In this document: piece by piece, positions 7,915 through 44,620 of the stretch
Layout of the letters: each line of letters begins with the position of its first letter
Position numbering within the stretch: the stretch's first letter is position 1
Source: an uncultured Victivallales bacterium
GTDB taxonomy: Bacteria; Verrucomicrobiota; Kiritimatiellia; UBA8416; JABMPJ01
Assembly: GCA_964345005.1 (NCBI GenBank)
Contig: CAYFPQ010000001.1
Coordinates: forward strand, 38,751 to 102,750
Direction of reading: 5' to 3'
DNA length: 64,000 nt
The notes under the pieces: model-generated
What the model saw: the letters and a program-made list of their open reading frames with translations, nothing else
What the model was told of the DNA's origin: nothing
Databases searched by the model: none
Program-made: the position numbers and the translations under genes

Positions 7915-7992
7915 GAGTATGTGGTCTGTGGGCGGGGGAGGTCAAGGATGGGGAGGAAATCTCGCGCGGAGGCGCAAGGTGGAGAGCTGGGA
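7915..7992. repeat. copy of a composite dispersed repeat (shares the 24-mer GGGGGAGGTCAAGGATGGGGAGGA with 25395-25418)
   Basis: Identical 24-mer at 7932 and 25395, and similar flanks '...tgggattatga...'. Lies between the DegT start and the HEPN stop. Confidence 0.5.
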
Positions 7993-8409
7993 TTATGACT
8001 GGGGCAGGAATCCGTTTGCGACGAGATATTGCTCTGCTGCGGTGAGTATGTCTTGGGCATGGCCAAGATCTGCTCTGGCATCCGCCTCATCAATGCTGAC
8101 ACCGATGTCATAGTCGCCTGTCTGCCGCTCGCGGAACAGGCGCGCTATCTTCTTGCCAAAATCCTTTGGGAATATGCCTGATACAACGAAATGCTTGCCG
8201 AATTCGGCAATGGTGCCACTGTGTGTGGAACAGGTGATGTCTCTGCTGAGTAGCAATGCCTCCAACGCATAGAAAGCAGTGTAATAGGCACGGGAGGCAC
8301 CGAAGTCGTAGTCACCCGCATCCACATCACGCTTTGCAGAAGCCATCGCTCGGCGTCCTTTGGTCAGCAAAGCTTGCAGTTGACTAGCCAGCTCGGGCGA
8401 AGGGGTCAT
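7993..8409 (-). CDS. HEPN domain protein (toxin-like partner of the upstream MNT)
   Basis: 138 aa. HEPN-type helical protein with 'R...AYYTAFYALEALL' and Rx4-6H-like features. Overlaps the MNT gene by 4 nt. Confidence 0.8.
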   Translation of the reverse strand: MTPSPELASQLQALLTKGRRAMASAKRDVDAGDYDFGASRAYYTAFYALEALLLSRDITCSTHSGTIAEFGKHFVVSGIFPKDFGKKIARLFRERQTGDYDIGVSIDEADARADLGHAQDILTAAEQYLVANGFLPQS

Positions 8410-8744
8410 ACAGGTACGCCTTCCTTCTCAATGTTCATGAAAAGTGGGTCAAACTTGCGGCCACGGGCAGTCGATTCGCTTGTCAAAAAGGCGGCCATGA
8501 CAACGCCAAACTGGTACAGCATTTGGCCCGCAATCTCATCGATTGCGTCTTTCATGTTGCGATTGACTTCGTCGACCACCACCAAGAGGTCATAATCGGA
8601 GTCGGGCTTGGCGTCCCCACGTGCACGTGAGCCAAACAGCACAATGCGTTTCAGGTGGCGGCCGAATTGTGCTTGGATACTGCCTCGGATGCGAGAGAGC
8701 ACCTGTGCTTGTTCGGCATGGTCATGTGCGCTTGTTTCAACCAT
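8406..8744 (-). CDS. nucleotidyltransferase (MNT) domain protein, HEPN-MNT module
   Basis: 'LFGSRARGDAKPDSDYDLLVVV' is the polymerase-beta-type NTase GS...D.D motif. 112 aa. Confidence 0.8.
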   Translation of the reverse strand: MVETSAHDHAEQAQVLSRIRGSIQAQFGRHLKRIVLFGSRARGDAKPDSDYDLLVVVDEVNRNMKDAIDEIAGQMLYQFGVVMAAFLTSESTARGRKFDPLFMNIEKEGVPV

Positions 8745-8856
8745 GTGTCTAGAGTGTCACACGCCCCGTTTCGGGTCAACGGCAAGATAAGCGATATCTG
8801 GTGGACGATTGCATGGATGAAATGCGAAGGTGAGCCGCAACGAAGGGGACAACGTG

Positions 8857-8940
8857 ATGCGTGAGCGGAATGCTTTGCTGTGGGCTGGAGTCGCAGCGCT
8901 TTTCTTGGTGGTGCTGCTCTCTGTGTTCTGGGAGCAGTAG
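8857..8940 (+). pseudogene. duplicated 5' fragment (27 codons + stop) of the YfhO-like membrane-protein gene that now starts at 9935
   Basis: 'MRERNALLWAGVAALFLVVLLSVFWEQ*' versus the intact N-terminus 'MRKRCFSRRAGVAALFLVLLLSVFWEP...'. About 85 bp of DNA is repeated, including the ATG. Confidence 0.6.
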
Positions 8941-9060
8941 TGGGTCTGGTTGCGAGCCGGAGATCAGAGATCAGAGTTCAGAGGGCGTAAGTCTGTAGCC
9001 GGAGCGGGAGTAAGAGGGGTCTCGTGCCCTCCGTCGCACGAGGCTATGGAGCGCGGGCCG
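8941..9060. repeat. composite dispersed repeat: heptamer array (GAGATCA/GCCGGAG units) plus the hairpin motif CTCGTGCCCTCCGTCGCACGAGGCTATGGAG
   Basis: 7-nt periodic units at 8956-9020. The hairpin-containing motif recurs at 12596-12630 and, in variant form, at 25500-25540. Confidence 0.6.
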
Positions 9061-9147
9061 AGATGCCAAGATGCAGAGCAGAAGAGCGGCACACGTTGGG
9101 AACAGGCACTTGTGGGCAGACGTCCGATTTGCTAGTCTCGATGCGTT

Positions 9148-9934: not shown

Positions 9935-12589
9935 ATGCGCAAACGATGCTTTTCGCGGCGGGCTGGAGTCGCAGCGCTTTTCTTGGTGCTGCTGCTCTCT
10001 GTATTCTGGGAGCCGTTGAATGGAGGGCGGTCGCTATACACAGGAGATTCGAATCTCGGCATCATCATGGCTCGGAAGGCCGGGCTGCCTGAACGTTGGT
10101 TCGGCGGTTGGGGAACACATGTGCTGCTCGGAGGTGCGGGCAGCACGCCGCTTACGCTGAGCCGGATGATGCACTGGTGGTTGCCTGCGGAGACATTCAA
10201 CGATCTGTCGTATGGTCTTTGTCTTCTTGTCGGCGCGCTATTGCTTGGGGCGTTTCTTCGGTTGCGGGGTGTTGGGTTTGTCGGAGTATGCCTTGCGGGG
10301 TTGGCAGCTTTCTGGACGGGCTCCAACCTGACGCTTCTCTATCCGGGGCATCTGGAAAAGTTCTTCTGTGTGATGTTGGGGACGGTGGTATTGGTGTGCC
10401 TGGAGAAGCTGGTCCTCACGCGACGGTGGCTGTGGGGGGGGCTGGCTGGTGGGGCTCTGGGCGGGATGTTTCTGGAGCAGCAGGATGTGGCGCTGTTCAT
10501 GGGGATCTTTCTGGGGGCGTATGCGGTGTATGCGATGCTGCGGGAGCAGCGGTTGCAGGAGGGCGGAGGTCAGAAGTCGGAAGTCGGAGGTCTGAGAAGA
10601 TCTGTGCGGTCACTAGGGGCTCTTGCTTTGCGTCTTGGACCGGTGGTGGCGGTGGCATTGTTGCTTGTGGGGCCGATTGTTGGGAAAACGTATCGGACGA
10701 AGGTTACGGAGACGGCTTCGGTTGGTGAAGGCGCCGGTGAGCAGCAGAAATGGGAATTCTGCACGCAGTGGAGTCTGCCGGTCGAGGAGTCACTGGATTT
10801 CATTGCTCCCAATTTCTTCGGGATCAGATCGGGCGCTCCCGCAGGTCCGTATTGGGGGCGGACCGGGCAATCGGCGGGATGGGAGCAGACGAAGCGGGGG
10901 CTGCGTAATCTGCGTACGGAAGGGATCTATATCGGGGTTATCCCGGTAGGGTTGGCGCTGCTCGGGGTGCTGTTGGCTCTGCTGGGTGGAGCAAACGAAG
11001 GCAATGAGAACACCGAACAGCCAACAAGGAACACCCAACTCCCAACGAACGGAAGAAGATGGGATGCGATCTTCTGGGGGGTAGTGGCGCTGGTGACGTT
11101 GCTGCTGTCGTATGGAAAGTTTGCGCCTTTCTATCGGTGGTTCTGGCAATTGCCGATGGTGCATCCGATTCGGAATCCCAACAAGCACCTGCACATGTTC
11201 CAGATTGCCATCGGCGTTCTTGCAGCGTTTGGTGTGGACGGTTTGCTGCGGGGGCAGTGGGCTGAGACAAGGCGTGGACGAGCGATCGTTTGGTGTGGTG
11301 CCGGGCTGTTTGTCTTGGCTGCCGTCGGGATGTTCATTGGCAGCGGGTTTACTCAAGGAACGAGTGGCGCTCTGGTGCAGGGGTTTATGAAGAACGGCTG
11401 GGGGCAGGCTGCTCCGGTGATCGTGCAGAACATGATTCGGGCGCTGGTGCATGGCGGGTGGATGGCGGTACTTGGATGTACTTGTGTTGCAGGGGTGGTG
11501 CTGGGAAGGATGGGAATGTTCTCGCGCAGAGGCGCGGAGGCGCAGAGAGGGAAATGGATCGGTGTTGGATGTGTTTGCGCCTTGGCCGTGGCGGTTGCAG
11601 CGGATTGCGTGTGGTATTCGCGTGATTACGTTAAGACGGTGGATGCCGATGCGGTTGTGGGTGAAAATGCGGTGACAGAGTACCTGAAGGAGAACCTTGG
11701 CTCACAGCGGGTGTTGTTCTTCTCTCAGTCGGGGTTCTACAACCAGTGGCTCTCAACGCTCTTTCGTGCGCATCTGATACCGTCACTTAACGCACCTTCA
11801 ATGGAAAGGCTGAGCAAGCAGTATCAGGAGTTTCTCGACACTGTGGGCAAGAATCCGCTTCGGCTTTGGGAGCTTGCAGGGATTCGGTATGCACTGGGGC
11901 CGGTGCAGGTCTGGTCGCAGATTCAAGGGCAGCCTGAATGGAAAGAGGCCTTTGAGCCAGTCATGGGGTTCAATGTCTTTCAGCGAAAGGGCGGCGTGGG
12001 TGTTGAGCCTGTGAGATCCGGACAGACGCCGCAGCATTTGGTTCTTAAGTACAAGCGGGGGATGGACAGGTATACCCTGGTGCCGTCTTGGCGGAGTGTG
12101 CCTGATGATATGGCTTGTGCAGAATTGGTGAAGGCGGGGTTTGATCCGCACACAGAGGCTTTGATGTCACCGACGTTTGCTCAAGAAATACCTGTTGGCG
12201 ATGCGACATCGCCCCCAGGGCGTGTAGATATTCTGAAGGAGACAGTTTCGTCGATGCGTGTCAAAACGCGGGCGCAAGGCGCACAGCTGATGGTTGTCAG
12301 TCAGCTCTATGATCAGGACTTCTGGGCAACTGTGGATGGTCAACCGGTACCAGTGGTGCGCTGTAATTTCTTGTGTCTGGGTGTTCCTGTTCCGGACGGC
12401 GAACATGATGTGGTTATTCGGTACCGCCCAAGTCTAGCGGGTTTCTTCGTCCAAGTGACTGGGGTGCTGGCTGTATTGGGGGCGGCGGTGGGCTTGGTGT
12501 TGTCAAGGAGGCCCCTCCGTCGCGCTGTGCGCTATGGAGGGCAAGCGGAGGCCGGAGGCCCGAGGTCGGAAGTCGAAGCAGAGAAGTGA
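9935..12589 (+). CDS. large polytopic membrane protein (YfhO-like / GT-C-like); function uncertain
   Basis: 884 aa with many hydrophobic segments and a large C-terminal soluble domain. Start set at ATG 9935; the track's TTG at 9908 gives an extension encoded by inserted DNA. Contains in-frame heptamer-repeat-derived segments at 10563-10596 (GGQKSEVGG), at ~10990-11050, and at the C-terminus (PRSEVEAEK*). Confidence 0.65.
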   Translation: MRKRCFSRRAGVAALFLVLLLSVFWEPLNGGRSLYTGDSNLGIIMARKAGLPERWFGGWGTHVLLGGAGSTPLTLSRMMHWWLPAETFNDLSYGLCLLVGALLLGAFLRLRGVGFVGVCLAGLAAFWTGSNLTLLYPGHLEKFFCVMLGTVVLVCLEKLVLTRRWLWGGLAGGALGGMFLEQQDVALFMGIFLGAYAVYAMLREQRLQEGGGQKSEVGGLRRSVRSLGALALRLGPVVAVALLLVGPIVGKTYRTKVTETASVGEGAGEQQKWEFCTQWSLPVEESLDFIAPNFFGIRSGAPAGPYWGRTGQSAGWEQTKRGLRNLRTEGIYIGVIPVGLALLGVLLALLGGANEGNENTEQPTRNTQLPTNGRRWDAIFWGVVALVTLLLSYGKFAPFYRWFWQLPMVHPIRNPNKHLHMFQIAIGVLAAFGVDGLLRGQWAETRRGRAIVWCGAGLFVLAAVGMFIGSGFTQGTSGALVQGFMKNGWGQAAPVIVQNMIRALVHGGWMAVLGCTCVAGVVLGRMGMFSRRGAEAQRGKWIGVGCVCALAVAVAADCVWYSRDYVKTVDADAVVGENAVTEYLKENLGSQRVLFFSQSGFYNQWLSTLFRAHLIPSLNAPSMERLSKQYQEFLDTVGKNPLRLWELAGIRYALGPVQVWSQIQGQPEWKEAFEPVMGFNVFQRKGGVGVEPVRSGQTPQHLVLKYKRGMDRYTLVPSWRSVPDDMACAELVKAGFDPHTEALMSPTFAQEIPVGDATSPPGRVDILKETVSSMRVKTRAQGAQLMVVSQLYDQDFWATVDGQPVPVVRCNFLCLGVPVPDGEHDVVIRYRPSLAGFFVQVTGVLAVLGAAVGLVLSRRPLRRAVRYGGQAEAGGPRSEVEAEK
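10563..10596. repeat. in-frame heptanucleotide tandem array (GGAGGTC AGAAGTC GGAAGTC GGAGGTC) inside a CDS
   Basis: Same GGAAGTC-type units as at 29384-29420, 29694-29721, 25419-25475 and 12546-12590. Confidence 0.7.
10990..11050. repeat. in-frame copy of the MITE-arm-like 7-nt-unit motif (gaacacc gaacagc caacaag gaacacc caactcc caacgaa)
   Basis: Shares the core CCAACAAGGAA with the MITE arms at 14900-14930 and with 35153-35189. Encodes 'NENTEQPTRNTQLPTNG'. Confidence 0.5.
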
Positions 12590-12700
12590 TATCTCGCGCC
12601 CTCCTTCGCACGAGGCTACGAAGGGCATACCACAACGCTGAGGCGCAAAGCAGGGAATAGGGACTGTGGGGCGGAAGTCCGAAAGCGGAAATCGGAGCCA
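12541..12700. repeat. composite dispersed repeat (heptamer array + CTCGCGCCCTCCTTCGCACGAGGCTACGAAGG motif + second heptamer array 12671-12700)
   Basis: Homologous to 8941-9060. The first 49 nt form the last codons and stop of the membrane-protein gene. Confidence 0.6.
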
Positions 12701-12732
12701 ACAGACGATCCTCCACCATCCCTTATTCGTCC

Positions 12733-13914
12733 TTGAAAAATGAAAGCCAAGCGTTCAATATTCAAGAAATGAAGGTTCGTAGAGACAGGTTGGAGTCGGC
12801 GGTTCGTGATGCGCTCAGGCGAGGGCGCTGCGTGGGACTCTCGGGTCCGCGACAGTGCGGCAAGAGCACGCTGGCAAGAGATATCGCGAGCCTGGAGTCG
12901 GCGGCTGCCTACTTCGACCTGGAAGACCCTGCGTCGGAAGCACGCCTGCAAGATCCAAAGCTAGCGCTACAGTCACTCCGGGGGCTGGTTGTTATCGATG
13001 AGATCCAGAGGCGCCCCGACCTGTTCCCGCTGCTGCGCGTGTTGCTGGATCGTGACCCGCTGCCAGCCAAGTTCCTTCTTCTGGGCAGTGCGTCACCGGA
13101 GCTGCTCCGAGGGGCATCGGAGAGCTTGGCGGGTCGGATCGAGTTCATCTCAATGAGTGGCTTCACACTGGACGAGACAGGAGATGACACCGCACGTCGG
13201 CTCTGGCAACGGGGTCGCTTCCCTCTGTCGTATCTGGCGTCAAATGACCATGACAGTATGAAATGGCGGTCAGCCTTCGTTCAGTCGTTCGTCGAGCGCG
13301 ATCTCAGACTTCTGGGGGTGGATCTGCCCCCCATGAGTGTACGGCGCCTGCTGACTATGCTTGCCCATTACCATGGCCAAACCTGGAATGCCTCAGAGAT
13401 AGGGAGAGCTCTTCAGCTATCGCACATGACCGTCAAGCGTTACCTGGACCTCCTCACCGGAGCCCTGCTTGTCAGACAGCTGCCTCCCTGGTTTGAGAAC
13501 GTGGGAAAGCGTGCAGTGAAGTCGGCAAAAGTCTACCTCAGAGACAGCGGGATATTGCACAGTCTCCTAGGGCTCGAGCAAATGGAAGATATGGAGAGCC
13601 ATCCCAAGCTCGGCGCTTCATGGGAGGGCTTTGCGCTTGAGATGCTCTTGGCGTGGAAGGGGGATGACAACGCGTTTTTCTGGGGGACACATGGTGGCGC
13701 CGAACTGGACCTCTGTTGGATGACCGGCAAGGAGCGCGTGGGGGTTGAGCTCAAGTACACAAGTCGTCCGGCTGTTACTCGCTCCATGCACATCGCCTTG
13801 GCGGACCTGAGACTCGATCATCTTTACGTCGTGCATCCCGGAACAGAGGACTATCCGCTCGCCGATCGGGTAACGGCAGCCAGTCTGGCAGCTATGCGTG
13901 GTATTTTGGGGTAG
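12733..13914 (+). CDS. ATP-binding protein, AAA_14 + DUF4143 family
   Basis: Walker A 'GPRQCGKST', Walker B 'VVIDEIQ', C-terminal '...VYLRDSGILHSLLG...' DUF4143 signature. About 50% identical to the paralogue at 16918-18084. Confidence 0.85.
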   Translation: MKNESQAFNIQEMKVRRDRLESAVRDALRRGRCVGLSGPRQCGKSTLARDIASLESAAAYFDLEDPASEARLQDPKLALQSLRGLVVIDEIQRRPDLFPLLRVLLDRDPLPAKFLLLGSASPELLRGASESLAGRIEFISMSGFTLDETGDDTARRLWQRGRFPLSYLASNDHDSMKWRSAFVQSFVERDLRLLGVDLPPMSVRRLLTMLAHYHGQTWNASEIGRALQLSHMTVKRYLDLLTGALLVRQLPPWFENVGKRAVKSAKVYLRDSGILHSLLGLEQMEDMESHPKLGASWEGFALEMLLAWKGDDNAFFWGTHGGAELDLCWMTGKERVGVELKYTSRPAVTRSMHIALADLRLDHLYVVHPGTEDYPLADRVTAASLAAMRGILG

Positions 13915-14252
13915 CTGACGATGCAAGAACTATGTGCGACACGATGACGCAAGTAGTCACCAACTGTCACAAATCTGAAGTCCCACTTTAGATCTGTCAT
14001 GGAGATGTACACAGAGCGCCGCGCGGGACGAACGCCCCGACTGTCGTAGGCGAGGCGGCCTCGCGGCTCAGGAATAGCTCGCCCCAGCTCTGAGGCCGTC
14101 TGAATCCACTCGTCAATGACGGTCTCTGCGTTGGCAAGCGCCTCATGGTATGTGCTGCCGTCAGCCATACAACCAGGGAGTTCGGGCACTTCAGCAACGA
14201 ACGCTTGATCCTCGTCGCTCCAGAAAATGATAATTTCATATCGGCTGGTCAT
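13851..14252 (-). CDS. hicB: HicB-family antitoxin (UPF0150 / RNase-H-like fold)
   Basis: N-terminus 'YEIIIFWSDEDQAFVAEVPELPGCMADGSTYHEALANAETVIDEWI' is canonical HicB. The ORF runs 133 aa and overlaps the 3' end of the ATPase gene, so the functional core may be shorter. Confidence 0.7.
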   Translation of the reverse strand: MTSRYEIIIFWSDEDQAFVAEVPELPGCMADGSTYHEALANAETVIDEWIQTASELGRAIPEPRGRLAYDSRGVRPARRSVYISMTDLKWDFRFVTVGDYLRHRVAHSSCIVSYPKIPRIAARLAAVTRSASG

Positions 14253-14254
14253 CG

Positions 14255-14400
14255 TTATTCCTCCAGATGGAGTCCATACTTCAGTATGATACCACGAATC
14301 TGTTTCACTTGGTATGGTTTTGCTTTGCTGTGTTTCGGTTTATGCCATGGTGGCGTCCAGGCTTGTGGCGGCCTCTGTTGGACGAGCGAGTCATTCTCGC
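14255..14400 (-). pseudogene. decayed HicA-like toxin remnant immediately upstream of hicB
   Basis: Minus-strand translation ends '...WHKPKHSKAKPYQVKQIRGIILKYGLHLEE*', aligning with the HicA C-terminal 'HPKKDIPIGTLKSILKQAGL' region. No start codon is present and the N-terminal half is degenerate, with a stop at 14471. Confidence 0.4.
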
Positions 14401-14480
14401 CGTCGCAGACCGAGAGCGGGAGGATTAATGTGTAGAAGCAAGTGCAGAAGTATGGCTGCTGTCCGTACTCTTACATACTC

Positions 14481-15201
14481 TTACACGTTGATCCTCTTTC
14501 TTTGGCCGACGTACTGTAGCTCATCGAGAAACATGACGAGTGCTGTGCCTGCTGCCGCCGCAGCCGTGCCGGCAGCTTGCAGGAGATCCTGTAGGTCATG
14601 TTCCAGATCGCCGTTGTCGGCGAGGCCCGGCTCTGGGGCGAGGTCCAGTCCCACTTCCAGATCCTGGTACTTGACCTTCAGTGCTTGTGCGAATCCAGCC
14701 AAGGCACGCAGCCCTCGCTGCGCCATGTCTCTGGCCTGTGCATGCTTGGAGAGTTTGATGAGCGCGATGCGCAGTTCAGGCGCCAGAAGGGCCGGTAACG
14801 AGCGGTTTTCCGGCGCTTCGGCCCGGATCCATGGCTGCAAGCTAGACCCTGTCCGAAAAGGGTTGGGACATCAGAAAGGGCGAATGACGGAGAGAATATC
14901 CAATATCCAACAAGGAATCTCCAATATCCAAGGTAAGACTTCGGTCGATACCGACGGAAACCGCGGAAGGTAGCGTGAAGTCCGGCAGAAGTTCCCCCCC
15001 TTGTAAATTGGATTTGAGTGTTGGCTGTTGGATATTGAGATTCCAAAGAGCGCAGATACCTTTTCGGACGACGTCTAGATAGTCGGGGTTGACGATGTGA
15101 TATAGAGGAATCTGTCGGGAGAGTTGCGCTACCAGTGTTGTCTTGCCAGACCCGTTTGGCCCGGCAAAAACTCTCAACCCAGGTATGCGCTCCGTTGTCA
15201 C
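14481..15201 (-). pseudogene. P-loop NTPase (ABC/RecF-type Walker A 'FAGPNGSGKTTL'; AAA_21-like) interrupted by a MITE insertion
   Basis: N-terminal 41 codons (15201-15079) carry the Walker A motif. The reading frame then enters MITE sequence. The C-terminal part resumes at 14840 and ends '...VMFLDELQYV...', a Walker B-like motif. Confidence 0.55.
14842..15078. mobile_element. MITE-like element, copy 1 (~237 bp; TIRs CTAGACCCTGTCCGAAAAGG / CCTTTTCGGACGACGTCTAG; arms built of 7-nt units)
   Basis: Near-identical to 36667-36908. Terminal inverted repeats of ~20 bp. Internal arms 'gaatatc caatatc caacaag gaatctc caatatc' and their complement. The track's spurious ORFs 'MESQYP(T/I)ANTQIQF...' occur in both copies. 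Confidence 0.8.
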
Positions 15202-15401
15202 CGGGGGATCTTGTAGGTGGGCTTTTTCGGTCTGACGTAGGCCTTCTCCAGTTCCATGACGGTTTCTTCGTGTCCTTCGGGCGAGCGCCGAATAATGCGT
15301 TTGCCTCGCTTGAAAGTCACGCTGAGCCCTCGTGCATATGCGTCACGTACGGCTGCGCGTGACGCTGTCTTGAATGCCTTGGCTATCTGTTGGCCTGTCA
15401 T
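15198..15401 (-). CDS. small basic protein (67 aa), translationally coupled (ATGA overlap) to the downstream P-loop NTPase; possible antitoxin-like partner
   Basis: The ORF ends 4 nt inside the ATPase start. No recognisable family. Confidence 0.35.
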   Translation of the reverse strand: MTGQQIAKAFKTASRAAVRDAYARGLSVTFKRGKRIIRRSPEGHEETVMELEKAYVRPKKPTYKIPR

Positions 15402-15652
15402 GAAGTGAACCTTAACATCGCGCTATGAGGGGTAAAGATGAAAGTGGTGTGGATTCATGTGCGAACGCCATGGGGCTTGCCTTTCGATAGCGACTGCGAT
15501 TCCTGCGATTCCGATTCCAACGAAACCGCTGGATCATACGAAGTCACTCTGCATCCTGACGAGAGTAGGCCGACCTTGTGTTTTCGAAATGCCAAAGAAA
15601 CGGAAATAACTGTGTTGCCTGTTTGCGTCTCTTATGATAGGGTGCTCCTGCG

Positions 15653-16801
15653 ATGAACGGAAGGCAACAGGGCTCGGGGAGAACGGTCATATGTCCTGGT
15701 GGTTACGAAGCGTACGTGCCGGATCCCCTTCCTCCTGAGATCGAACTCACTCCAGCCCTCCTTCGCTCGCTCTCCGATGCAGACCGCCTGCTGGGGAAGC
15801 TGGCCGGCGAGGGACGGGCGCTACGGAACCCGCATCTGCTTATGCGCCCCTTCATCAAGCAGGAGGCCGTTCTCTCAAGCCGCATTGAGGGTACGCAAGC
15901 CACACTTGGAGAGCTTCTGGCTTCCGATGCGGGGGCAACAGTGAGCAGGAGTCCTGCCGATTTGCGGGAAGTGGCGAATTACGTCACGGCCCTTGAATAT
16001 GGCATAGGCCGTCTATCTTCGCTCCCCCTGTCGCTCAGGCTTGTTGCCGAGCTTCACGGGAAACTGATGCAGGGCGTCCGAGGCGAGCAGATGACGCCGG
16101 GTGAATTCCGTCGCAGTCAGAACTGGATTGGGCCTCCGGGCTGCACGCTTCAAAATGCATCATACGTTCCGCCGCCCGTCGCGGAACTGATGTCGTGTCT
16201 GAGCGACTGGGAGACGTTCCTGCACGACCGCTCGCTCCCACCGCTGATCCAGGCGGCTCTCATGCACAGTCAGTTTGAGGCCATACACCCCTTTCTGGAT
16301 GGCAATGGTCGCGTTGGCCGGTTGTTGATCACGCTTTTCCTCGTGGAGCGGGATATTCTTCCAACGCCGCTTCTGTATCTTAGCGCTTTCTTCGAGGTCA
16401 CGCGTCGCGATTACTACGATCGACTCAATGGGGTCACCAGCAATGCAGCCTGGGAGCAATGGATTGAGTATTTCCTGAACGGCGTTGCCCGGATGTCTGA
16501 AGATGTCCTAGTGCGGGCCGAAAGAATCAACAACCTGTTCGAAGCATGGCGGAACCTGGCAGCGGGAAAGAGCAAGACCGCGCTGGAGATTCTTCACCTG
16601 CTGGAAGAGAATCCGTATTGCACGATCACAAAGACGGCAGAGAAGCTCGGAGTAGCCTTTACCACGGCTCAGCGTGGCATCGATCGCCTGGCAGCACTTG
16701 GGGTGCTGGAGCCGGTCGACGACGCAAGGCGGAATCGCGTTTTCTCTGCCCGGGAAGTCATGGATATACTGGATGCGCCTCCGGCTTTCGTTACGGCCTG
16801 A
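15653..16801 (+). CDS. Fic/Doc family protein (class II, with N-terminal inhibitory SxxxEG helix and C-terminal wHTH)
   Basis: Fic motif 'HPFLDGNGRVGR'. Inhibitory motif 'SSRIEG' upstream in the same polypeptide. 382 aa. Confidence 0.9.
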   Translation: MNGRQQGSGRTVICPGGYEAYVPDPLPPEIELTPALLRSLSDADRLLGKLAGEGRALRNPHLLMRPFIKQEAVLSSRIEGTQATLGELLASDAGATVSRSPADLREVANYVTALEYGIGRLSSLPLSLRLVAELHGKLMQGVRGEQMTPGEFRRSQNWIGPPGCTLQNASYVPPPVAELMSCLSDWETFLHDRSLPPLIQAALMHSQFEAIHPFLDGNGRVGRLLITLFLVERDILPTPLLYLSAFFEVTRRDYYDRLNGVTSNAAWEQWIEYFLNGVARMSEDVLVRAERINNLFEAWRNLAAGKSKTALEILHLLEENPYCTITKTAEKLGVAFTTAQRGIDRLAALGVLEPVDDARRNRVFSAREVMDILDAPPAFVTA

Positions 16802-16917
16802 ACGGGCGGATGTATCAGGAGACAACGATGCCGGCACTGCGGAAAAGAACTCAAATGGGTTGACGGGGCTCTTTGATGTGTTATTATCCATGTAAATAGA
16901 TTCAGGTAGAGCAAGAT

Positions 16918-18084
16918 ATGCATGGATATATAAGAAGAAGCGCTGAATCTGAGGTGTTGTCGGCTCTGGCACGATCACCTGCTGTAGCCATACTTGGGCC
17001 GAGGCAGTGTGGAAAATCCACGCTCGCAGAGCATATGTTGCGTGGAAGAGACGCCGTAAGTCTCGACCTACAGTCACGGCAGGACCTCGCCAAACTGGCG
17101 GAGCCCGAACTCTTCTTGGAGCAGCATCGGAGTCGCACGGTCTGCCTCGACGAGATTCAAAGACTCCCGGATTTCTTCACTATTCTGCGTTCTGAAATTG
17201 ATCGTGATCGTCGTCCGGGACGGTTTCTGATTCTTGGCTCTGCTTCCCGTGACCTGATCCGTCAGTCCAGCGAGACGTTGGCAGGCCGCATCGCGTATGT
17301 TCCGCTCACTCCGTTTCTGCTCCCCGAAGTGTCTTCCCGCGGCCCACTGTGGGACTTGTGGAGCCGAGGCGGTTTTCCTGAGAGTCTTCTGGCCTCGGAC
17401 GATGTGCAGAGTGCCGCCTGGCGGCGTGATTTCACGCAGACATTTCTGGAACGGGACATACCGGCCCTCGGGTTTTCGATACCGATGCCTGTCATGGATA
17501 GGCTCTGGCGACTACTTGCACACTACCATGGTCAGACGGCGAATTTCAGCAAGCTTGCCGAAGCAGCCGACATTTCCGTGCAGTCACTGCGTAAGTACCT
17601 GGCGCTTCTGGAGCAGACCTACATGTTGCGCATGTTGCCCCCCTACGAGGCGAATCTGAAGAAGCGCCTCGTGAAGGCGCCAAAACTGTACGTTAGAGAC
17701 AGCGGCGTCTTGCATTCCCTGTTGGAGATAGAGTCCTATGACCGTCTTCTTGGTCATAGCGTTGTGGGGGCATCCTGGGAGGGGTTTGCCTTGGAAAACA
17801 TCGTAGCTGGCCATCCGCTCTGGCGTTCTTCGTTTGTCAGGACGTCAAATGGCGCTGAGGTCGATCTGCTATTGGAGAGAGGGGGGATACGAAAGCTCTA
17901 CGAATTCAAGGCGTCCAAGGCGCCCAAACCTTCACGCGGTTTCCACCAACTGGTTCATGACCTCCTGCCTCAGTCTGCCGCCATTGTTGCGCCTGTCGAT
18001 GAGTCGTTTGCTATCGGGAAGGGCGTCCATGTTCTTACGTTGCTTGATGCGGTCGAAGGGCGCCGCGTGGGGCAGAGAGCTTGA
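16918..18084 (+). CDS. ATP-binding protein, AAA_14 + DUF4143 family (paralogue of 12733-13914)
   Basis: 'GPRQCGKST' ... 'VCLDEIQ' ... 'LYVRDSGVLHSLLE'. 388 aa. Confidence 0.85.
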   Translation: MHGYIRRSAESEVLSALARSPAVAILGPRQCGKSTLAEHMLRGRDAVSLDLQSRQDLAKLAEPELFLEQHRSRTVCLDEIQRLPDFFTILRSEIDRDRRPGRFLILGSASRDLIRQSSETLAGRIAYVPLTPFLLPEVSSRGPLWDLWSRGGFPESLLASDDVQSAAWRRDFTQTFLERDIPALGFSIPMPVMDRLWRLLAHYHGQTANFSKLAEAADISVQSLRKYLALLEQTYMLRMLPPYEANLKKRLVKAPKLYVRDSGVLHSLLEIESYDRLLGHSVVGASWEGFALENIVAGHPLWRSSFVRTSNGAEVDLLLERGGIRKLYEFKASKAPKPSRGFHQLVHDLLPQSAAIVAPVDESFAIGKGVHVLTLLDAVEGRRVGQRA

Positions 18085-18109
18085 CTGGGGTCATGGAGAA
18101 CGGAGTAAC

Positions 18110-19465
18110 ATGATGGGCATCAGGCAAACGATAAAGTCTCGCTTGGGGCCGCTGTGGTGGTATTCGGCGCTACAGTTTGTGTTCTCGAAAATTGAGAACT
18201 TGGTCAATCTGTTCGTCGGTGCCTTCTTGATGGTGGACTTGGTTGGCCAGGACGACCTCGGTGTAGTGGTTCCCTTCAAGATGATTATCGCTTTCGCGGC
18301 ACTGCCGATGGGCGTATTGACACGTACGGCCGTAAAGTTCATCAACGCATTCCATGTTGGCGAACAGAAGGGTGAGGTCAAGGCTCTGCTGCGGGACCTG
18401 GGTGCAGTGGCGCTGGTCCTGTCGATCTTTTCTGTCTTGGTGCTCTGGCTGGGGCAGGGGCCTTTCCAAGCGCGACTCAAGTTCGAGGATCCGCGTATCT
18501 ATTGGGTGATGGTAGCAACATTGGTGGTTTCTCTGTGGATGCCGGTGCTGGCCGTGGCGGCTCAGGGATTGATGCGCTTTCGGCATATGATCCTATCGAG
18601 CGTGGTCAGGCCACTGGTCTACCTCGTGCTGATGCTGATTCTGCTTAAGCAGTTCCAGTTAATGGGATATCTGATGGCCATGCTTGGAGCTTCATGTGCC
18701 GTGCTGCTGTATCTGCTTTGGTCGATCCGCGCGTACATCGGACCGGGAGTCAGGGCATTGAGCTATGGGGCGGAGTGGGGGCGGATTCGACGGTACGGTG
18801 TGAATGTTGGGTCCGTGACCTTGCTCCTTGGTTTCGCGGCGATCATTGAGCCGCTGACCATACGACACTTTGCATCGCGCGTCGACTCGGCCGCATACTA
18901 TGTGGCGTTCATGTTTGGGCAGATTCCTCTGTACCTGTCGGCGGCCTTCACGCCGTTTCTTTTCCCTTTGGTATCCCAGCGTTTTGAGAGAGGAGAGAAG
19001 ACGGATCATATGTTGATCCAGTCCGTGGTGGCCATGCTCGTTATCGGCGTACCTCTGCTGGTGTTCTTCATCTTTGGCGGGCGCTGGCTGTTGGGATTGC
19101 GCCTATCGTGGAGTCAATACGTGAGCTATGCTCCTCTGCTGTGGAAGATCGGTGTTGTTAGCATTCTACAGAGCCTGCTGATAGCGTTTATGGCTCATCA
19201 ACATGCGTGTAACCGGTTCCGGCACGTGCAGTGGTTTGTCGGTGTGCTCGTTCTGGAGATCGTTCTTCTCTACTTCTTCATGGGATGGCACGAGTTGCGC
19301 GGAGTGGTTCCGGGAGAGCTGTGGGAAACGGTCCAAGAAGTGGTGCAGCACAAGTTGGCGTTTGTCGTTTGGATGATGATTGGAACGAGGGCGCTGCTAA
19401 CTATGACTGCTGCATGGTGCTTCGTGAGGCAAAGACCCTTCTCCTCTACTCAGTTAATCGCGTGA
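18110..19465 (+). CDS. polysaccharide biosynthesis protein / Wzx-like flippase (MOP superfamily)
   Basis: 451 aa with ~12 predicted TM helices. Start set at the ATG directly after the preceding gene's stop; the track ORF from 17834 overlaps the upstream CDS. Confidence 0.65.
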   Translation: MMGIRQTIKSRLGPLWWYSALQFVFSKIENLVNLFVGAFLMVDLVGQDDLGVVVPFKMIIAFAALPMGVLTRTAVKFINAFHVGEQKGEVKALLRDLGAVALVLSIFSVLVLWLGQGPFQARLKFEDPRIYWVMVATLVVSLWMPVLAVAAQGLMRFRHMILSSVVRPLVYLVLMLILLKQFQLMGYLMAMLGASCAVLLYLLWSIRAYIGPGVRALSYGAEWGRIRRYGVNVGSVTLLLGFAAIIEPLTIRHFASRVDSAAYYVAFMFGQIPLYLSAAFTPFLFPLVSQRFERGEKTDHMLIQSVVAMLVIGVPLLVFFIFGGRWLLGLRLSWSQYVSYAPLLWKIGVVSILQSLLIAFMAHQHACNRFRHVQWFVGVLVLEIVLLYFFMGWHELRGVVPGELWETVQEVVQHKLAFVVWMMIGTRALLTMTAAWCFVRQRPFSSTQLIA

Positions 19466-21897: not shown

Positions 21898-25311
<3,414 letters not shown>

Positions 25312-29668: not shown

Positions 29669-29693
29669 GGCGGGACTGTATAATAAGGGATAC

Positions 29694-31547: not shown

Positions 31548-31594
31548 AGGATTAGCCGCGAAAGAGCGCAGCGAACGCAAAGAAAGAAGATTAC

Positions 31595-35149: not shown

Positions 35150-35292
35150 CAGCAAGAACATCGAACATCGAACAAGGAACATCCAACGCAGAACTGAACG
35201 AGTCTTGAGGATAAGCGGTTGTCAGGCCGACTATTCGCCGACTCTCGCAGCGTTGGATGTTGGGAGTTCCTTGTTGGCTGTTGGATGTTCAA
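35150..35292. repeat. palindromic MITE-related element with 7-nt-unit arms (gaacatc gaacatc gaacaag gaacatc caacgc / complement)
   Basis: Arms at 35153-35189 and 35249-35290 are reverse complements. They share the CCAACAAGGAA core with the MITE arms but have a different central segment. Confidence 0.65.
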
Positions 35293-36620: not shown

Positions 36621-36941
36621 TTGCGGCTCGCTGGGGACAGCTCGCCCTACCTGGCATTCGATGTGTCTAGATCGACCCTGTCCGAAAAGGGTTGGGACAT
36701 CAGAAAGGGCGAATGACGGAGAGAATATCCAATATCCAACAAGGAATCTCCAATATCCAAGGTAAGACTTCGGTCGATACCGACGGAAACCGCGGAAGGT
36801 AGCGTGAAGTCCGGCAGAAGTTCCCCCCCTTGTAAATTGGATTTGAGTGTTGGCTATTGGATATTGAGATTCCAAAGAGCGCAGATACCTTTTCGGACGA
36901 CGTCTAGATCGTGGCTGGGGTAGCTCTCCGAGCGAGCCGTG
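36621..36941. repeat. REP-like hairpin element (GGCTCGCTGGGGACAGCTCGCCCTACCT family) split by a nested MITE insertion
   Basis: Left arm at 36624-36651. A degenerate right arm ('ggctggggtagctctccgagcgagcc') resumes at 36910 after the MITE. Confidence 0.55.
36667..36908. mobile_element. MITE-like element, copy 2 (near-identical to 14842-15078)
   Basis: More than 97% identity over ~235 bp and the same TIRs (…CTAGA[TCG]ACCCTGTCCGAAAAGG … CCTTTTCGGACGACGTCTAGAT). Confidence 0.8.
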
Positions 36942-37984: not shown

Positions 37985-38092
37985 GTTGTTAGACTGTAGG
38001 CTGTAGGCTATAGGATTAGAGACCGGAAGGATCAATGTCCTGCACTATGTCAGACCTTCAGCCTACAGTCTACAGCCTATAGCCTTCTCCCC
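37985..38092. promoter_or_regulatory. symmetrical heptamer arrays (CTGTAGG CTGTAGG CTATAGG ... CCTACAG TCTACAG CCTATAG) flanking a ~45-bp core, immediately upstream of the wHTH gene
   Basis: Direct reading of the sequence. The two arrays are mutually complementary and lie in a divergent promoter region. Confidence 0.5.
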
Positions 38093-38677
38093 ATGAACGG
38101 ACTGGATTTTCTGCTCGCGAATCGCACACACCTGCGCGTGTTGCGTGTTCTGTTCGAGGCGGAAGGACAGATGACAGGGCGAGCCGTACAGCGTGCGGCG
38201 GGGCTTTCAAATAAGGTCACGATGGACGCGCTTCACAGGCTCGTGGAGCTCCGAGCACTCCACGTTGAACCTCATGGGCGGTCGCAACTCTACGAGATCA
38301 ACAGGAACCACTACCTCGTTGATCGGGCCCTGACGCCGGCGTTCGACGCTGAGGAGCATTTCTGGGAGGATGTGGCACGTACAGTCCGGCGTATCATCCG
38401 CCCTCGCCCGATCGCCGCAGTGGCCACCGGGCCGCTCGCGCGCGACGAGACCCAGTATGGCGGACGGCTCATGTTGACCATGCTGTTCTCAACCGGCCGC
38501 AACCGGCTGCGCGCGCTGCAGACCGTGGGCGCCCTGGCAAGACAGATTCAAGACCGGTATGCCCTCAGCCTTGAGCAGCAACTGCTGGATCTCAAGACGA
38601 TGGACCGTGACGAGTACATCCCGCTCTGGCGAAGGGTTGAGCGCGAGGGCATCCTGCTGTTTGGCTCGCTGCCTTAG
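38093..38677 (+). CDS. winged-helix DNA-binding protein of unknown function
   Basis: N-terminal 'LRVLRVLFEAEGQMTGRAVQRAAGLSNKVTMDALHRLVELRAL' is MarR/ArsR-like wHTH. The C-terminal ~120 aa are uncharacterised. Confidence 0.5.
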   Translation: MNGLDFLLANRTHLRVLRVLFEAEGQMTGRAVQRAAGLSNKVTMDALHRLVELRALHVEPHGRSQLYEINRNHYLVDRALTPAFDAEEHFWEDVARTVRRIIRPRPIAAVATGPLARDETQYGGRLMLTMLFSTGRNRLRALQTVGALARQIQDRYALSLEQQLLDLKTMDRDEYIPLWRRVEREGILLFGSLP

Positions 38678-40075: not shown

Positions 40076-40170
40076 ATTGCGGCTCGCTGGGGACAGCTCG
40101 CCCTACCTCATCCTGCGCATGTCTTCACCCGGGCCCAGGTAGGGCTCGCCCTCCGGGCGAGCCGTTCGCC
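40076..40170. repeat. REP-like imperfect hairpin (GGCTCGCTGGGGACAGCTCGCCCTACCT ... AGGTAGGGCTCGCCCTCCGGGCGAGCC)
   Basis: Same family as 53609-53702 and 36621-36651. Overlaps the 3' end of the LbH protein ORF. Confidence 0.65.
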
Positions 40171-41372
40171 ACTTCATCCACGACTGTTTGTAGCCACTCT
40201 GTGCCTGTAAGTCGAGCCGGTCCGGATAGCCCCTTAATTGCATCCAAGTATGGGGCGGTGGTGTCGATCGCGTCCAGGAACGCATCCCGCCTGGTTTCAT
40301 CGCCGGCATGAATCGAAGCGGCGTCGACCTGTACCTTCAGGGCGGGCCACTGGGCAACGAACTGCTCATGCAGTGCGAACGGAGTCGCGGGAAGGTCGCC
40401 GTCGTGTTCGGACCGGGCTCGGTCGAGCGACTCGGTCAGACGGAGTGCGAGGCGGTCGAGTTGCTTGATCCGTTCCTCGATCAGTTCGTCCAGTCTCAAC
40501 AGGGCACCGGCATGGCAGTGCGCGGCAGAACCGGCGGTCATGAAACGCGCCCTGACATGCCGGTACCATTCGCGAAGCGCGTGCAGGTTGCCGAGATAGA
40601 TCCAGTTGTTGCGCAGTACGCGCGAGATGTTGCCGTAGGTCCCGGGCTGGTAGGGCCGGGGACGCGCCTTCGGCGCCGTCGAGCCGGTGAAAAGCAGTCC
40701 GGGATCGAGCACATCACGCCGATGTATCGTGCCGGCGGCGAGCACAGTACCGTAGGCGATTCGCACCGGACCGACGATGCCGCCCTGTCCGCCGAGGAAG
40801 ATGGGAGGCTGGTCCAGCATTACACCTTGCGGGACGTCCCCCATCAGTGAGGGAGTGGCCTTGTCGCGATGTGGGGTGTAGTTGAAATGAATGTATGAAG
40901 ACCCGACTTCACTATGATCGGAGCGGCTGGTTCCTCCGGCCATCAGGCAGTCGCAGAAGTTGATCAGGCTGCCGAGAACAACGTGGGGCATCAGGATGGT
41001 CTGCTTGAGACCGACGCTGTGTGCGCACGAGGAGCCCTCCTCCAGCAGGCATCCGTGCCGGATGTGCGCTCCGGGTCCAACCTCGACGCCGTCAAGGAAT
41101 GTACAGCGCGAGAAGGTGCCGCTCCCAAGTCTAACACCCGCCCCGAGCTGGCAGTTGTCGAGAACGACCGGACCGTCGAGCCCAACGATGCTGCCGGGTC
41201 CGATGGCGAGATCGGCGCCGCTGAGTCGGGTGCCGGGGTGGAGAACGCTGCCGGCGGCGATGCGCCCCGAATCCACGTCCTCCGCCACATACACCAGGTC
41301 CGGCGCCGGAATGATAACGCCGGAGTTCTTGAGGGATGTAACCGGCTCGCTCATAGGCCAATCCTGGGACAA
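40125..41372 (-). CDS. hexapeptide-repeat (left-handed beta-helix) protein with uncharacterised C-terminal helical domain, encoded between glmM and glmS
   Basis: Long run of hexapeptide repeats (…IGPGSIVGLDGPVVLDNCQLGAGVRLGSGTF…). No nucleotidyltransferase domain, so not a complete GlmU. 415 aa. Confidence 0.6.
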   Translation of the reverse strand: MSQDWPMSEPVTSLKNSGVIIPAPDLVYVAEDVDSGRIAAGSVLHPGTRLSGADLAIGPGSIVGLDGPVVLDNCQLGAGVRLGSGTFSRCTFLDGVEVGPGAHIRHGCLLEEGSSCAHSVGLKQTILMPHVVLGSLINFCDCLMAGGTSRSDHSEVGSSYIHFNYTPHRDKATPSLMGDVPQGVMLDQPPIFLGGQGGIVGPVRIAYGTVLAAGTIHRRDVLDPGLLFTGSTAPKARPRPYQPGTYGNISRVLRNNWIYLGNLHALREWYRHVRARFMTAGSAAHCHAGALLRLDELIEERIKQLDRLALRLTESLDRARSEHDGDLPATPFALHEQFVAQWPALKVQVDAASIHAGDETRRDAFLDAIDTTAPYLDAIKGLSGPARLTGTEWLQTVVDEVANGSPGGRALPGPG

Positions 41373-41488
41373 GGAAGAGGATCAATGTGTAAGAGTATGT
41401 GTACGAGTATGGTCTTGGGTATTCCGTACTTATACACGTACTCGTACACGTCAATCCTCCCGGCGCCGTCAGGCGCCACACGCTCCCG

Positions 41489-43333: not shown

Positions 43334-43377
43334 ATAGCGACTCCCGTTTCCCATGAAGAGTAGCGACGATTGCTGTC

Positions 43378-44535
43378 TTAGGCAAGATCGACGCAGTCAG
43401 GCTTGGCGGTGTCCGCAGCCAACCACTCGTAGACGCTACGCATCTGCATGGCAACACGATCGGTTGAGTAGCAATCTTCCACCAACTGACGCCCGCGTTG
43501 ACCCATCTCGTGCCGCTCGGCATCGGAGATCGACATGGCGTGGCGCAGGGCCTCGATGAGTGACGACTCACTCAGCTCTGTCCACCAACCCGCTCGCCGA
43601 TCTTCCATGATCTGCCACGGCGCGCCCTTGGTCGTGACGACCGGGGTCCCGTATCCAAGGGCTTCGGCCACAACAATGCCGAAGTTCTCGCTCAGGGTCG
43701 GCAGTACGAACAGGTCCGCATCGCGCAGGAATGCGGCCTTCTCTTGGTCAAAGAGGGGGCCGGGAAACCGCACGGTCTCCTGTACGCCCAGCTCCATCGC
43801 GAGCCGCTTCAGTTCATTCTGGTGCCCGTTTTCGTCTGTGCCGGCGATCTCGATCTGCCAGCTTGGAAAGTCGGTCTGCAGGGCCTGCCAGGCCGTGAGT
43901 AGCATGGGAAGGCCTTTCTTGGGGTGAATGCGCGAAAGGAACGCCATCCGCCGCACGCGTTCGTTCGCATCGGGGAGCACGGCCATATCGGTCGCGGGGG
44001 GGAGATCGATGCCGTTCGGAATGATACAGATCGGCGGGCGTAGCCCCATGGCGCGAAAATTATCGGCTTCGGCATCGGCCGTCGCGTGGAGGCAGGAGGC
44101 GCCCTGCAGGTCGCGCCACTGGAAGACGGCGTTTGCCAACAACTTCTTCCAGCGCGAGAACTGCATCGCCCCCGGCTCCAGCATGCCCCGCGGAGTCAGG
44201 ACAGTGGGAATGCCGCGCTGTCGCCCCGCCCGCATGGCATAGTGGACGGGGTACTGCCACAGCCCGTGACCATGGAAGATGTTTGCTTCCAGCGTTGCCG
44301 ACCGCTGCTTCATCTCGGAGGACAGGCACAATGGTGTCCGAAACAGTTCGTCACTGAAATGAATCCCCACGCCCCTGTCCTGAAGGTGCGTTGTATCAAC
44401 CGGGGCCGGACTCTTGAGGGTCTCGATCGACACCGCTGTGCCGTGCCGTGCCAAGGCTTCGCAAAGGGTCGGCACGCTTCGTGCCGGACCTCCATCGCTG
44501 ATATCCAGGGACCTGATGAAATGGATCGCTCTCAC
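43378..44535 (-). CDS. glycosyltransferase family 4
   Basis: GT-B C-terminal motif '...LSENFGIVVAEALGYGTPVVT' (E-x7-E). 385 aa. Confidence 0.8.
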   Translation of the reverse strand: MRAIHFIRSLDISDGGPARSVPTLCEALARHGTAVSIETLKSPAPVDTTHLQDRGVGIHFSDELFRTPLCLSSEMKQRSATLEANIFHGHGLWQYPVHYAMRAGRQRGIPTVLTPRGMLEPGAMQFSRWKKLLANAVFQWRDLQGASCLHATADAEADNFRAMGLRPPICIIPNGIDLPPATDMAVLPDANERVRRMAFLSRIHPKKGLPMLLTAWQALQTDFPSWQIEIAGTDENGHQNELKRLAMELGVQETVRFPGPLFDQEKAAFLRDADLFVLPTLSENFGIVVAEALGYGTPVVTTKGAPWQIMEDRRAGWWTELSESSLIEALRHAMSISDAERHEMGQRGRQLVEDCYSTDRVAMQMRSVYEWLAADTAKPDCVDLA

Positions 44536-44592
44536 TGCTGCAACTCCCTAAAGGCGTCGCCATCCTACACCATGAACGCCGTTGCACACCAC

Positions 44593-44620
44593 CTTGAACC
44601 TTGAACCGTGAACCCCGAAC
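44593..44620. repeat. heptanucleotide tandem array (CTTGAAC CTTGAAC CGTGAAC CCCGAAC) in the divergent promoter between two GT4 genes
   Basis: Four 7-nt units by direct reading. A further 'CATGAAC' lies 20 nt upstream. Confidence 0.75.

Follow-up and report, generated by a model that had tools for sequence, protein, structure and literature searches.

Tandem heptanucleotide repeats have been known since 1990 as short tandemly repeated repetitive (STRR) sequences (Mazel 1990) and since 2007 as the dominant class of long simple sequence repeats (SSRs) of prokaryotes. As summarised in PMC4679880, no class of long SSR is commoner in many prokaryotes than heptamers (Mrazek, Guo & Shah 2007). Arrays of GGGAATC in Xanthomonas and of GGGGAYT in Nostoc form convergent inverted pairs and occupy the same spacers with variable sequence across species (Rehm 2015, PMC4692102), TAACTGA repeats were reported from Beggiatoaceae (PMC4679880), and a fourfold heptamer element of Geobacter metallireducens with the consensus GGACCGG has 49 inter- and intragenic copies (Aklujkar 2009, PMC2700814). 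Two further systems bear on such repeats: the Rickettsia palindromic elements (RPEs), which insert in frame in genes (PMC10969869), and hmw1A/hmw2A of Haemophilus influenzae, with 13-24 perfect 7-bp units whose number varies between isolates (PMC8262952). Here we analysed 64,000 nucleotides of an uncultured Victivallales bacterium (contig CAYFPQ010000001.1, positions 38,751 to 102,750; the whole stretch is hereafter called the window), in which arrays of 7-nt units recur in spacers and in frame inside genes, as an initial annotation of the sequence had noted. We consider it probable, at roughly 60%, that these arrays are internal parts of several very small, non-coding dispersed repeat families that have multiplied in this Kiritimatiellia lineage.

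Tandem Repeats Finder (TRF) returned 55 rows for the window, 21 of them with period 7, against a mean of 1.3 period-7 rows in 40 second-order Markov shuffles run with the same parameters. In a sliding lag test, which called a segment strong when positions i and i+p agreed in at least 16 of 21 comparisons, lag 7 gave 10 segments and each other lag between 4 and 14 gave 0-2. The observation of the initial annotation is confirmed. Likewise, the pattern GGARNYC repeated 2.5 times matched 25 times (1.3 expected) and CCAAN3 repeated three times matched 8 times (0.3 expected). The units run head to tail as in heptameric long SSRs, they belong to several types (GGAAGTC, GAGATCA, AACACCC, AATATCC, CTGTAGG, ACCTTGA), and 13 of the 17 robust arrays by our own tally lie in spacers, a mostly intergenic distribution of the STRR type. 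Tracts are significant as a class and short, the longest having about 8 units (25413-25475) and the majority 3.4-5.4 units according to TRF; cyanobacterial tracts in the comparison sequences L057, L069 and L076 are far longer, with 10-20 units. The density of strong lag-7 segments per 10 kb was 1.56 in the window, 1.15 in the sampled cyanobacterial loci, 0.78 in Kiritimatiellia relatives, 0.77 in Omnitrophota and 0.34 in a mixed metagenomic set, the last being a background obtained by a metagenome scan with PlsX (best identity 59%, no close relatives).

The comparison material for the lineage and its relatives amounted to about 115 kb in total. Same-strain sequences came from exact-protein look-ups and were tiny contigs only (L001, L082), the look-ups for the proteins GT4b, p38093 and P0001 finding no record. 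All arrays named in the initial annotation were recovered at or within a few bases of where it had placed them, except that the periodic part of the array given as 8956-9020 stops near 8998, and arrays that it had not listed were added at 11008-11047, 12668-12700, 14895-14931/15010-15036, 35153-35187/35251-35290 and 36724-36760/36839-36865. The same arrays are present in independent assemblies (L001 from ENA, L163 and L164 from JGI), and they are therefore not assembly artefacts. The end of the L082 contig lies downstream of an array by about 33 nt; this is a weak sign of assembly breakage, and arrays of this kind may break short-read assemblies.

Three families could be distinguished (Table 1). 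The first is a hairpin with two degenerate CCAAC-type arms of about 40 nt around a variable loop. Eight such arms, taken from five loci of the window (including the solo arm at 11008-11047) and from the related contigs L002 and L163, align gap-free over about 40 nt with the consensus GAACATCCAACAGCCAACAAGGAACACCCAACANCCAA, and the non-periodic core CAACAAGG is common to five of the eight. The solo arm, which lies inside a YfhO-like gene, shows 88% complementarity with the 35251-35290 arm of the acpP-fabF spacer. Moreover, the acpP-fabF element of L002 matches, left arm to left arm and right arm to right arm, a 244-nt element that stands at another locus in the window. Such a pattern cannot come from independent slippage and indicates copying from existing copies. 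The 244-nt element occurs as two copies, A and B, that are 98% identical and have no coding capacity, and its outer inverted ends CTAGAC..GTCCGAAAAGG agree at 17/20 positions by our own count. Terminal inverted repeats, absence of coding capacity and near-identical copies are among the features of MITEs (miniature transposable elements with inverted repeats), and the CCAAC-type hairpins have inverted arms of about 40 nt. Copy B sits inside the loop of a palindrome (CGGCTCGCTGGGGACAGCTCGCCCTACC, arms 36621-36652 and 36913-36940) that is unbroken at 53608-53696 and 40077-40165, and it is a nested insertion. The CGGCTCGCTGGGGACAGCTCGCCCTACC palindromes fit repetitive extragenic palindromes (REPs) and REPINs in size and shape; members of this family were seen after fabF, between glmM and the next gene, next to thiI, and in L002 at about 5141-5227. 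Against dinucleotide shuffles, the long imperfect hairpins of the acpP-fabF spacer, of 37987-38087 and of the 244-nt element pairs folded with z = -6.4, -5.2 and -3.5.

The second family consists of purine-rich GGARNYC arrays accompanied by H, a palindrome that measures about 33 nt. Arrays start at 8956, 10555, 12544, 12668, 25413, 29385 (minus strand) and 29693; all seven, the minus-strand array of rsmD included, have their purine-rich strand in the sense orientation of the gene that hosts or adjoins them. H has the form CCCTCCGTCGC-N(4-10)-GCTATGGAGGG and occurs in four copies in the window against none expected, no copy being farther than about 45 nt from a GGARNYC array. Its size and shape fit REP/REPIN palindromes, but H is found also in coding DNA and the window holds no RAYT gene. 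Covariation in H is unsupported, the sole variant copy (12598) altering both arms in a non-compensatory way. The G-rich arrays themselves were rejected as structured RNA: their folds did not surpass those of shuffles (z = -0.2 to +1.9), and by eye their G-quadruplex potential is weak, with only GG runs. The third family comprises other paired arrays, such as CTGTAGG/CCTACAG. The initial annotation had these arrays flanking a promoter; instead, they form an inverted pair and a single hairpin that stops 7 nt before the ATG of gene 38093-38677, whose label as a winged helix-turn-helix gene has only a sub-threshold ArsR/SmtB match behind it.

The most probable alternative is that the arrays were born in situ, through replication or repair that favours slippage in 7-nt steps, local proto-repeats expanding and then decaying, and that the likeness between loci is convergence. 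Such slippage was proposed as a property of the DNA polymerase by Mrazek et al., as summarised in PMC4679880 and PMC4692102. It would agree with lag 7 being the commonest lag that is not a multiple of 3 in the mixed bacterial set (the other lags 8, 10 and 11 reaching at most 0.04 per 10 kb), with the many unrelated units in the window, and with a difference of about one unit in one arm between the window and L002, as judged by eye. Furthermore, the array at 25413-25475 contains a near-perfect (GCCGGAA)x4.9 core at 25427-25460 amid older degenerate units; this is the sole part of any array that looks recently amplified, and it suggests recent local amplification. Simple slippage, however, does not yield inverted pairs of one unit, nor does it account for a non-periodic core (CAACAAGG) and for left arms distinct from right arms that recur across loci and genomes, for the 33-nt non-periodic H that accompanies the GGARNYC arrays and also inserts alone, or for an rsmD array that replaces unrelated native sequence without a proto-repeat. 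As a general explanation we regard birth in situ as unlikely.

Comparison with orthologous loci indicated where sequence had been gained. The rsmD gene of the compact syntenic contig L163 has no array and carries an unrelated, native-looking loop, NA-ELVDSDAG-RVV, where the window, having gained a net 18 nt, reads SEVGGQRSEVGSNT; the loop, taken as normally conserved in the initial annotation, is variable. In the YfhO-like gene, L163 shares with the window both the GGARNYC array and the CCAAC arm, in the same positions, with identical length and with substitutions as the only differences, while the L165 gene is missing the CCAAC arm (a 45-nt gap) and has an H-like insert in the loop of the first array. 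The C-terminal extension of this gene by H and an array is present in the window only and not in orthologues; as had been proposed for 12546-12590, the array supplies the C-terminal codons. The fabD gene of L003 differs from that of the window by the exact in-frame insertion of H (CCTCCGTCGCCCCCGGGGCTATGGAGGGCAAGT, 33 nt, in the region 7960-8010), which adds about 11 residues to an essential enzyme. In-frame palindromic insertions missing from orthologues, the mark of RPEs, were found as +33 nt in fabD, +45 nt in the YfhO-like gene and +18 nt in rsmD, and these net lengths bear out the proposal that coding copies are tolerated as multiples of 3. Among spacers, the acpP-fabF hairpin is present in the window and in L002 and not in L003, and the L002 element belongs to a different arm subfamily with a loop of 144 vs 64 nt (z = -6.3). 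The hairpin at 37987-38087 is missing at the orthologous spacer of L002, and in L163 the rsmD/yceD spacer is taken up by another element, which has inverted ends and, as estimated by eye, a size of about 330 nt. In-register dispersed copies, the 244-nt duplicate at 98% and orthologues without the rsmD array and the CCAAC arm all agree with the view of the initial annotation that the genome seeds repeats rather than undergoing isolated slippage.

Different elements were seen at some of the same places. In L163 (3800-3835) and L165 (1650-1690), but not in the window, a loop of the YfhO-like gene carries an in-frame repeat with a period of 9 and a length of about 33 nt (of the ACAGGATCA type, translated as SDRINGV/SDRINRI), and its unit forms an inverted array pair in an L163 spacer (10424-10448 / 10550-10574). 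In L002, the spacer between fabF and csgG (1660-1975) is occupied by yet another element, about 300 nt in length and bounded by inverted ends of 26 nt (GGAGAATGGCAGAATCATTTACAGCA); the hairpin element that fills this spacer differs from lineage to lineage.

We also weighed the arrays as functional cis-elements kept by selection, either as multivalent sites (Shine-Dalgarno-like GGAGGU/GGAAGU, or GGA for a protein of the CsrA, S1 or Csp type) or as structured RNA such as RNase III or stability hairpins. MacGregor's proposal of a post-transcriptional network for the TAACTGA repeats (PMC4679880) is a precedent, and the sense orientation of the purine-rich strand in all seven GGARNYC arrays, the core Shine-Dalgarno sequence GGAGGU within units, the arm at 38054-38087 ending 7 nt before a start codon and the acpP-fabF hairpin at the same site in two species despite unrelated loops are all of the kind expected. 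The arms of that hairpin moreover differ in a pairing-preserving way (GAACATC/GATGTTC vs GAATATC/GATATTC), a change equally explained by replacement or conversion with a copy of another subfamily. The same spacers are, however, empty of the elements in the close relatives L003, L002 and L163, copies stand also inside coding loops and at a C-terminus, and no Rfam family matched: the whole window gave zero matches at the gathering threshold, and the hairpin region nothing at E<=1 except one chance S15 match. The two arrays of the YfhO-like gene that have orthologues in L163 share 32/38 and 28/40 identical bases (84% and 70%) in a gene that is 73% identical, a divergence no lower than neutral decay leads one to expect. 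In a decay simulation, the periodicity of these orthologous coding arrays matched neutral substitution of once-perfect arrays, and selective constraint on them cannot be claimed because simulated neutral decay yields the periodicity seen today. We regard this reading as unlikely, and as less probable than birth in situ.

Once in place, the arrays have kept their length. The window is 99.9% identical to L001, and three arrays have the same length in both; L163 and L164, which derive from two samples, show 100% identity over 10.8 kb; and the L165-type protein P0003 is identical in four assemblies; this polymorphism check covered a small sample of assemblies. Comparison of orthologues likewise revealed presence or absence, at rsmD and the CCAAC arm, and no variation in unit number in the orthologous coding arrays. 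The initial annotation had suggested phase variation, in which gain or loss of units would toggle reading frames or the promoters of glycosyltransferase and other genes, and there are arrays in two divergent spacers (rsmD/yceD and GT4/GT4), one sigma-70-like match, a consensus match only (-35 CTGACT, possible rsmD promoter), with its -35 box and part of its spacer inside 29693-29719, and a known heptanucleotide promoter switch in hmw1A (PMC8262952); yet such contingency loci are very improbable here, given tracts of 3-8 mostly imperfect units (at best 4.9 units at 96% match, and only two identical adjacent units in the GT4 array), no length polymorphism among the independent assemblies just named, two orthologous coding arrays of equal length across about 27% nucleotide divergence, no sigma-70-like promoter found at the GT4 or 38093 spacer, a plain knockout as the result of any 7-nt change in rsmD or the YfhO-like gene, and the equal presence of arrays at sites of housekeeping genes (rsmD, acpP-fabF). 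Phase variation is not supported for these arrays, and annotation of short imperfect 7-mer arrays as phase-variation switches in metagenome-assembled genomes (MAGs) should be avoided.

If the arrays are parts of dispersed repeat families, new copies would arise by copying of existing ones, through transposition in trans or through gene conversion or template switching at hairpins. Most copies would land in spacers and in the loops of other palindromes, and of those landing in coding sequence only inserts of 3n nucleotides in tolerant loops or at termini would survive. An occasional and rare amplification of units in situ may refresh a tract, the (GCCGGAA)x4.9 core being a probable example, and the arrays would afterwards be inherited stably and decay by point substitution. 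Paired arrays can fold into long hairpins as DNA or as RNA, and hairpins such as those in the acpP-fabF spacer and at the 38093 start codon may incidentally affect mRNA processing or stability, and the Shine-Dalgarno-like GGAGGU repeats are, from their sequence, possible candidates for incidental effects on transcripts.

Several observations weigh against the dispersed-family reading. No transposase, RAYT or other candidate mobilising gene was found in the 64-kb window, and the flanks of the two 244-nt copies give no consistent target-site duplication. The order of units shared among GGARNYC arrays was considered as a proof of descent and judged not significant, because few unit types exist. 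Unit sequences vary widely by site (GAGATCA, GGAAGTC, CTGTAGG, ACCTTGA), and given such divergent units some arrays may have arisen in situ. The sense-strand bias of the GGARNYC arrays hints at an RNA-level constraint that a purely selfish model does not predict, and the copies counted for each family come from the roughly 115 kb of the lineage and its relatives.

A much bolder extension, which we offer as speculation and hold to be improbable, is that heptamer-array hairpins form one class across phyla (cyanobacteria, Xanthomonas, Geobacter, Beggiatoaceae, Kiritimatiellia and Omnitrophota), made by a dedicated activity that would copy DNA 7 nt at a time and be directed to the loops of hairpins; candidates for it would be a polymerase that slips or is templated, or a single-stranded DNA enzyme of the HUH type. 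If true, such a class would account for 7 as the dominant period of long SSRs in prokaryotes, for inverted pairs nested in other palindromes and for the writing of arrays into coding loops, and the window would be a tractable case in which donor-recipient pairs are visible. 

Period-7 arrays abound in the Omnitrophota sequences L010, L017, L021, L033, L045, L068 and L070, where they often stand immediately upstream of rsmD and often form adjacent inverted pairs (e.g. L033 7015-7081, L017 2173-2302). Weak period-7 arrays were seen at L021 3804-3824 and L029 2576-2605, at the same RsmD loop as the array in the window.

Table 1. Heptanucleotide arrays, paired-array hairpins and associated palindromes of the window (positions count from its first letter).
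Feature	Position	Strand	Context
GGAGATC/GAGATCA-type array	8956-8998	+	inside mini-remnant of YfhO-like gene; H palindrome follows at 9026-9053
GGARNYC array	10555-10597	+	in frame in YfhO-like gene 9935-12589; encodes EGGGQKSEVGGLR in a variable loop
Solo CCAAC-type 40-nt arm	11008-11047	+	in frame in YfhO-like gene; encodes NENTEQPTRNTQLPTN
H palindrome CCCTCCGTCGC-N-GCTATGGAGGG	12511-12541	+	3' end of YfhO-like gene
GGARNYC array	12544-12586	+	last codons (GQAEAGGPRSEVEAEK) of YfhO-like gene; TGA stop 12587-12589
Second H palindrome (12598-12625) and degenerate GGARNYC array (12668-12700)	12598-12700	+	left edge of 5.5-kb island
244-nt nested hairpin element, copy A	14840-15083	+	inner CCAAC-type arms 14895-14931, 15010-15036
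Largest array, about 8 GGARNYC units	25413-25475	+	near-perfect (GCCGGAA)x4.9 core; H follows at 25504-25533
GGARNYC array	29385-29420	-	in frame in rsmD (29075-29668, minus strand); encodes SEVGGQRSEVGS
AGAAGTC/GGAAGTC array	29693-29719	+	rsmD/yceD spacer, sense, 48 nt upstream of yceD
Hairpin element	35153-35290	+	acpP-fabF spacer; CCAAC-type arms 35153-35187, 35251-35290; 64-nt loop
244-nt nested hairpin element, copy B	36669-36912	+	CCAAC-type arms 36724-36760, 36839-36865
CTGTAGG/CCTACAG inverted pair	37987-38087	+	arrays 37987-38018, 38054-38087; one hairpin
ACCTTGA-type array, 4.6 imperfect units	44587-44623	+	between divergent GT4 genes 43378-44535 (minus) and 44636-45841 (plus)
Weak solo TTGGNTA array (CCAAC-type, reverse)	54910-54940	+	spacer

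The window has a G+C content of about 58% and the gene order rsmD, then yceD-plsX-fabH-fabD-fabG-acpP-fabF. The nearest genomic relatives of its FabF are Kiritimatiellae/Kiritimatiellia MAGs with 92% and 88% amino-acid identity. A cyanobacterial origin of the DNA was considered and rejected: the HIP1 motif (GCGATCGC) occurs in 3 copies against 3.4 expected, and both the neighbours of the fab cluster and the nearest genomes are of Kiritimatiellia. Neither tRNA nor tmRNA genes were found in the window. Relative to L163, the region of 7.9-29 kb carries many accessory cassettes (two HEPN/MNT, two DUF4143 ATPases, Fic, HicB and a LamG protein), and this accessory-rich region contains all the purine-rich arrays. 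A 5.5-kb island at 12590-18134, with two DUF4143 ATPases, a HicB-like gene, Fic/HTH and the 244-nt element, is missing in L163, and its left edge is the cluster of H, array, H and array at 12511-12700.

Two rearranged places adjoin arrays. At 8857-9053, between two HEPN/MNT cassettes, stands a mini-remnant of the YfhO-like gene; its 5' end, an 84-nt copy at 8857-8940, is 91% identical to 9952-10016 and is fused to an array and an H like those at the 3' end of the gene, and it resembles a duplicated copy with an internal deletion ending at the repeats. The gene remnant that had been noticed beside the largest array was identified as the N-terminal part, about 50 codons long, of a WbpB-like oxidoreductase (25110-25266, minus strand), matching PDB entry 3oa2 at E = 8e-14 in a PDB sequence search; a Pfam search of it gave nothing. 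The largest array lies about 150 nt upstream of this remnant. A 28-nt motif, GGGCGGGGGAGGTCAAGGATGGGGAGGA, occurs with 96% identity at 7930-7957 and 25391-25418, upstream of a DegT/WbpE-like gene (6643-7905) and of the WbpB-like remnant, respectively, and motif and remnant are the trace of an old duplication or rearrangement of sugar-amination genes.

Other repeats of the window have no period of 7. The array at 24723-24784, (GACGAT/GACGAC)n with period 6/12 and about 10 units, lies in frame in a 1075-aa LamG-domain protein, where it encodes poly-Asp, and is an ordinary 3n coding repeat. A 38-nt direct repeat, GATTAGCCGCGAAAGAGCGCAGCGAACGCAAAGAAAGA, stands just after plsX (31550-31587) and at the start of thiI (53537-53574) with 84% identity. 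The short repeat family ACATACTCTTACACGTTGATCCTCTTTCTT at 14466-14502 and 41371-41451 has 30-nt arms that are 93% complementary between these distant sites, and local mini-arrays of period 10/12 (TACTCTTACA, ATGTGTAAGAGT) occur as well.

The very small dispersed repeats (SDRs) of Nostoc punctiforme, which Elhai et al. reported in 2008, are reportedly 21-27 nt long and mobile-looking and lie within or beside tandem heptameric repeats and hairpins; no enzyme is known to mobilise them. SDRs are cyanobacterial and shorter than H, which measures about 33 nt, is palindromic and has an unrelated sequence. The heptameric long SSRs of the STRR type resemble the arrays of the window in their over-represented 7-nt units, mostly intergenic placement, several unit types and convergent inverted pairs that can form stem-loops; in both, related species occupy the same spacers with extensive change of length and sequence (PMC4692102, PMC4679880), and the lag-7 density of the window equals or exceeds that of the sampled cyanobacterial loci. 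In contrast to STRR sequences, the tracts of the window are shorter and more degenerate, are arms or companions of larger dispersed elements, lie in frame in genes, and have a host in Kiritimatiellia, of the Planctomycetes-Verrucomicrobia-Chlamydiae (PVC) group. The Geobacter metallireducens element can be likened to the GGARNYC arrays in the YfhO-like gene and rsmD, but it has another unit and comes from another phylum, it was read as regulatory RNA without comparison of orthologues, and no companion palindrome was reported. The hmw1A/hmw2A repeats share with the window 7-bp tandem units upstream of surface or glycosylation-related genes, whereas the window has at best 4.9 near-perfect units, no variation was seen, and housekeeping genes are involved too. 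RPEs and intragenic MITEs are selfish palindromes in frame in unrelated genes, housekeeping genes included, and are tolerated in surface loops (PMC10969869); the comparable cases here are H in fabD of L003, the 45-nt arm in the YfhO-like gene and the rsmD array. RPEs, however, measure about 100-150 bp, lack 7-nt periodicity and are confined to Rickettsia, whereas the intragenic inserts in the lineage of the window have 33-45 nt. This resemblance is an analogy and not a membership, since size, sequence and host differ.

A full-text literature search returned no paper linking Kiritimatiellia with heptamers, and the present data extend the phenomenon to this lineage and, in passing, to Omnitrophota. 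They provide clean evidence that arrays are copied between loci within small hairpin elements and are then fixed in length while decaying by substitution, and that they can colonise loops of RsmD, FabD and the YfhO-like protein in frame, and thereby mark insertion-tolerant spacers and protein loops. The kind of element is thus already known, both as heptameric SSRs of the STRR type and as repeats like MITEs, REPs and RPEs; what is new is the lineage and the evidence of copying by descent.

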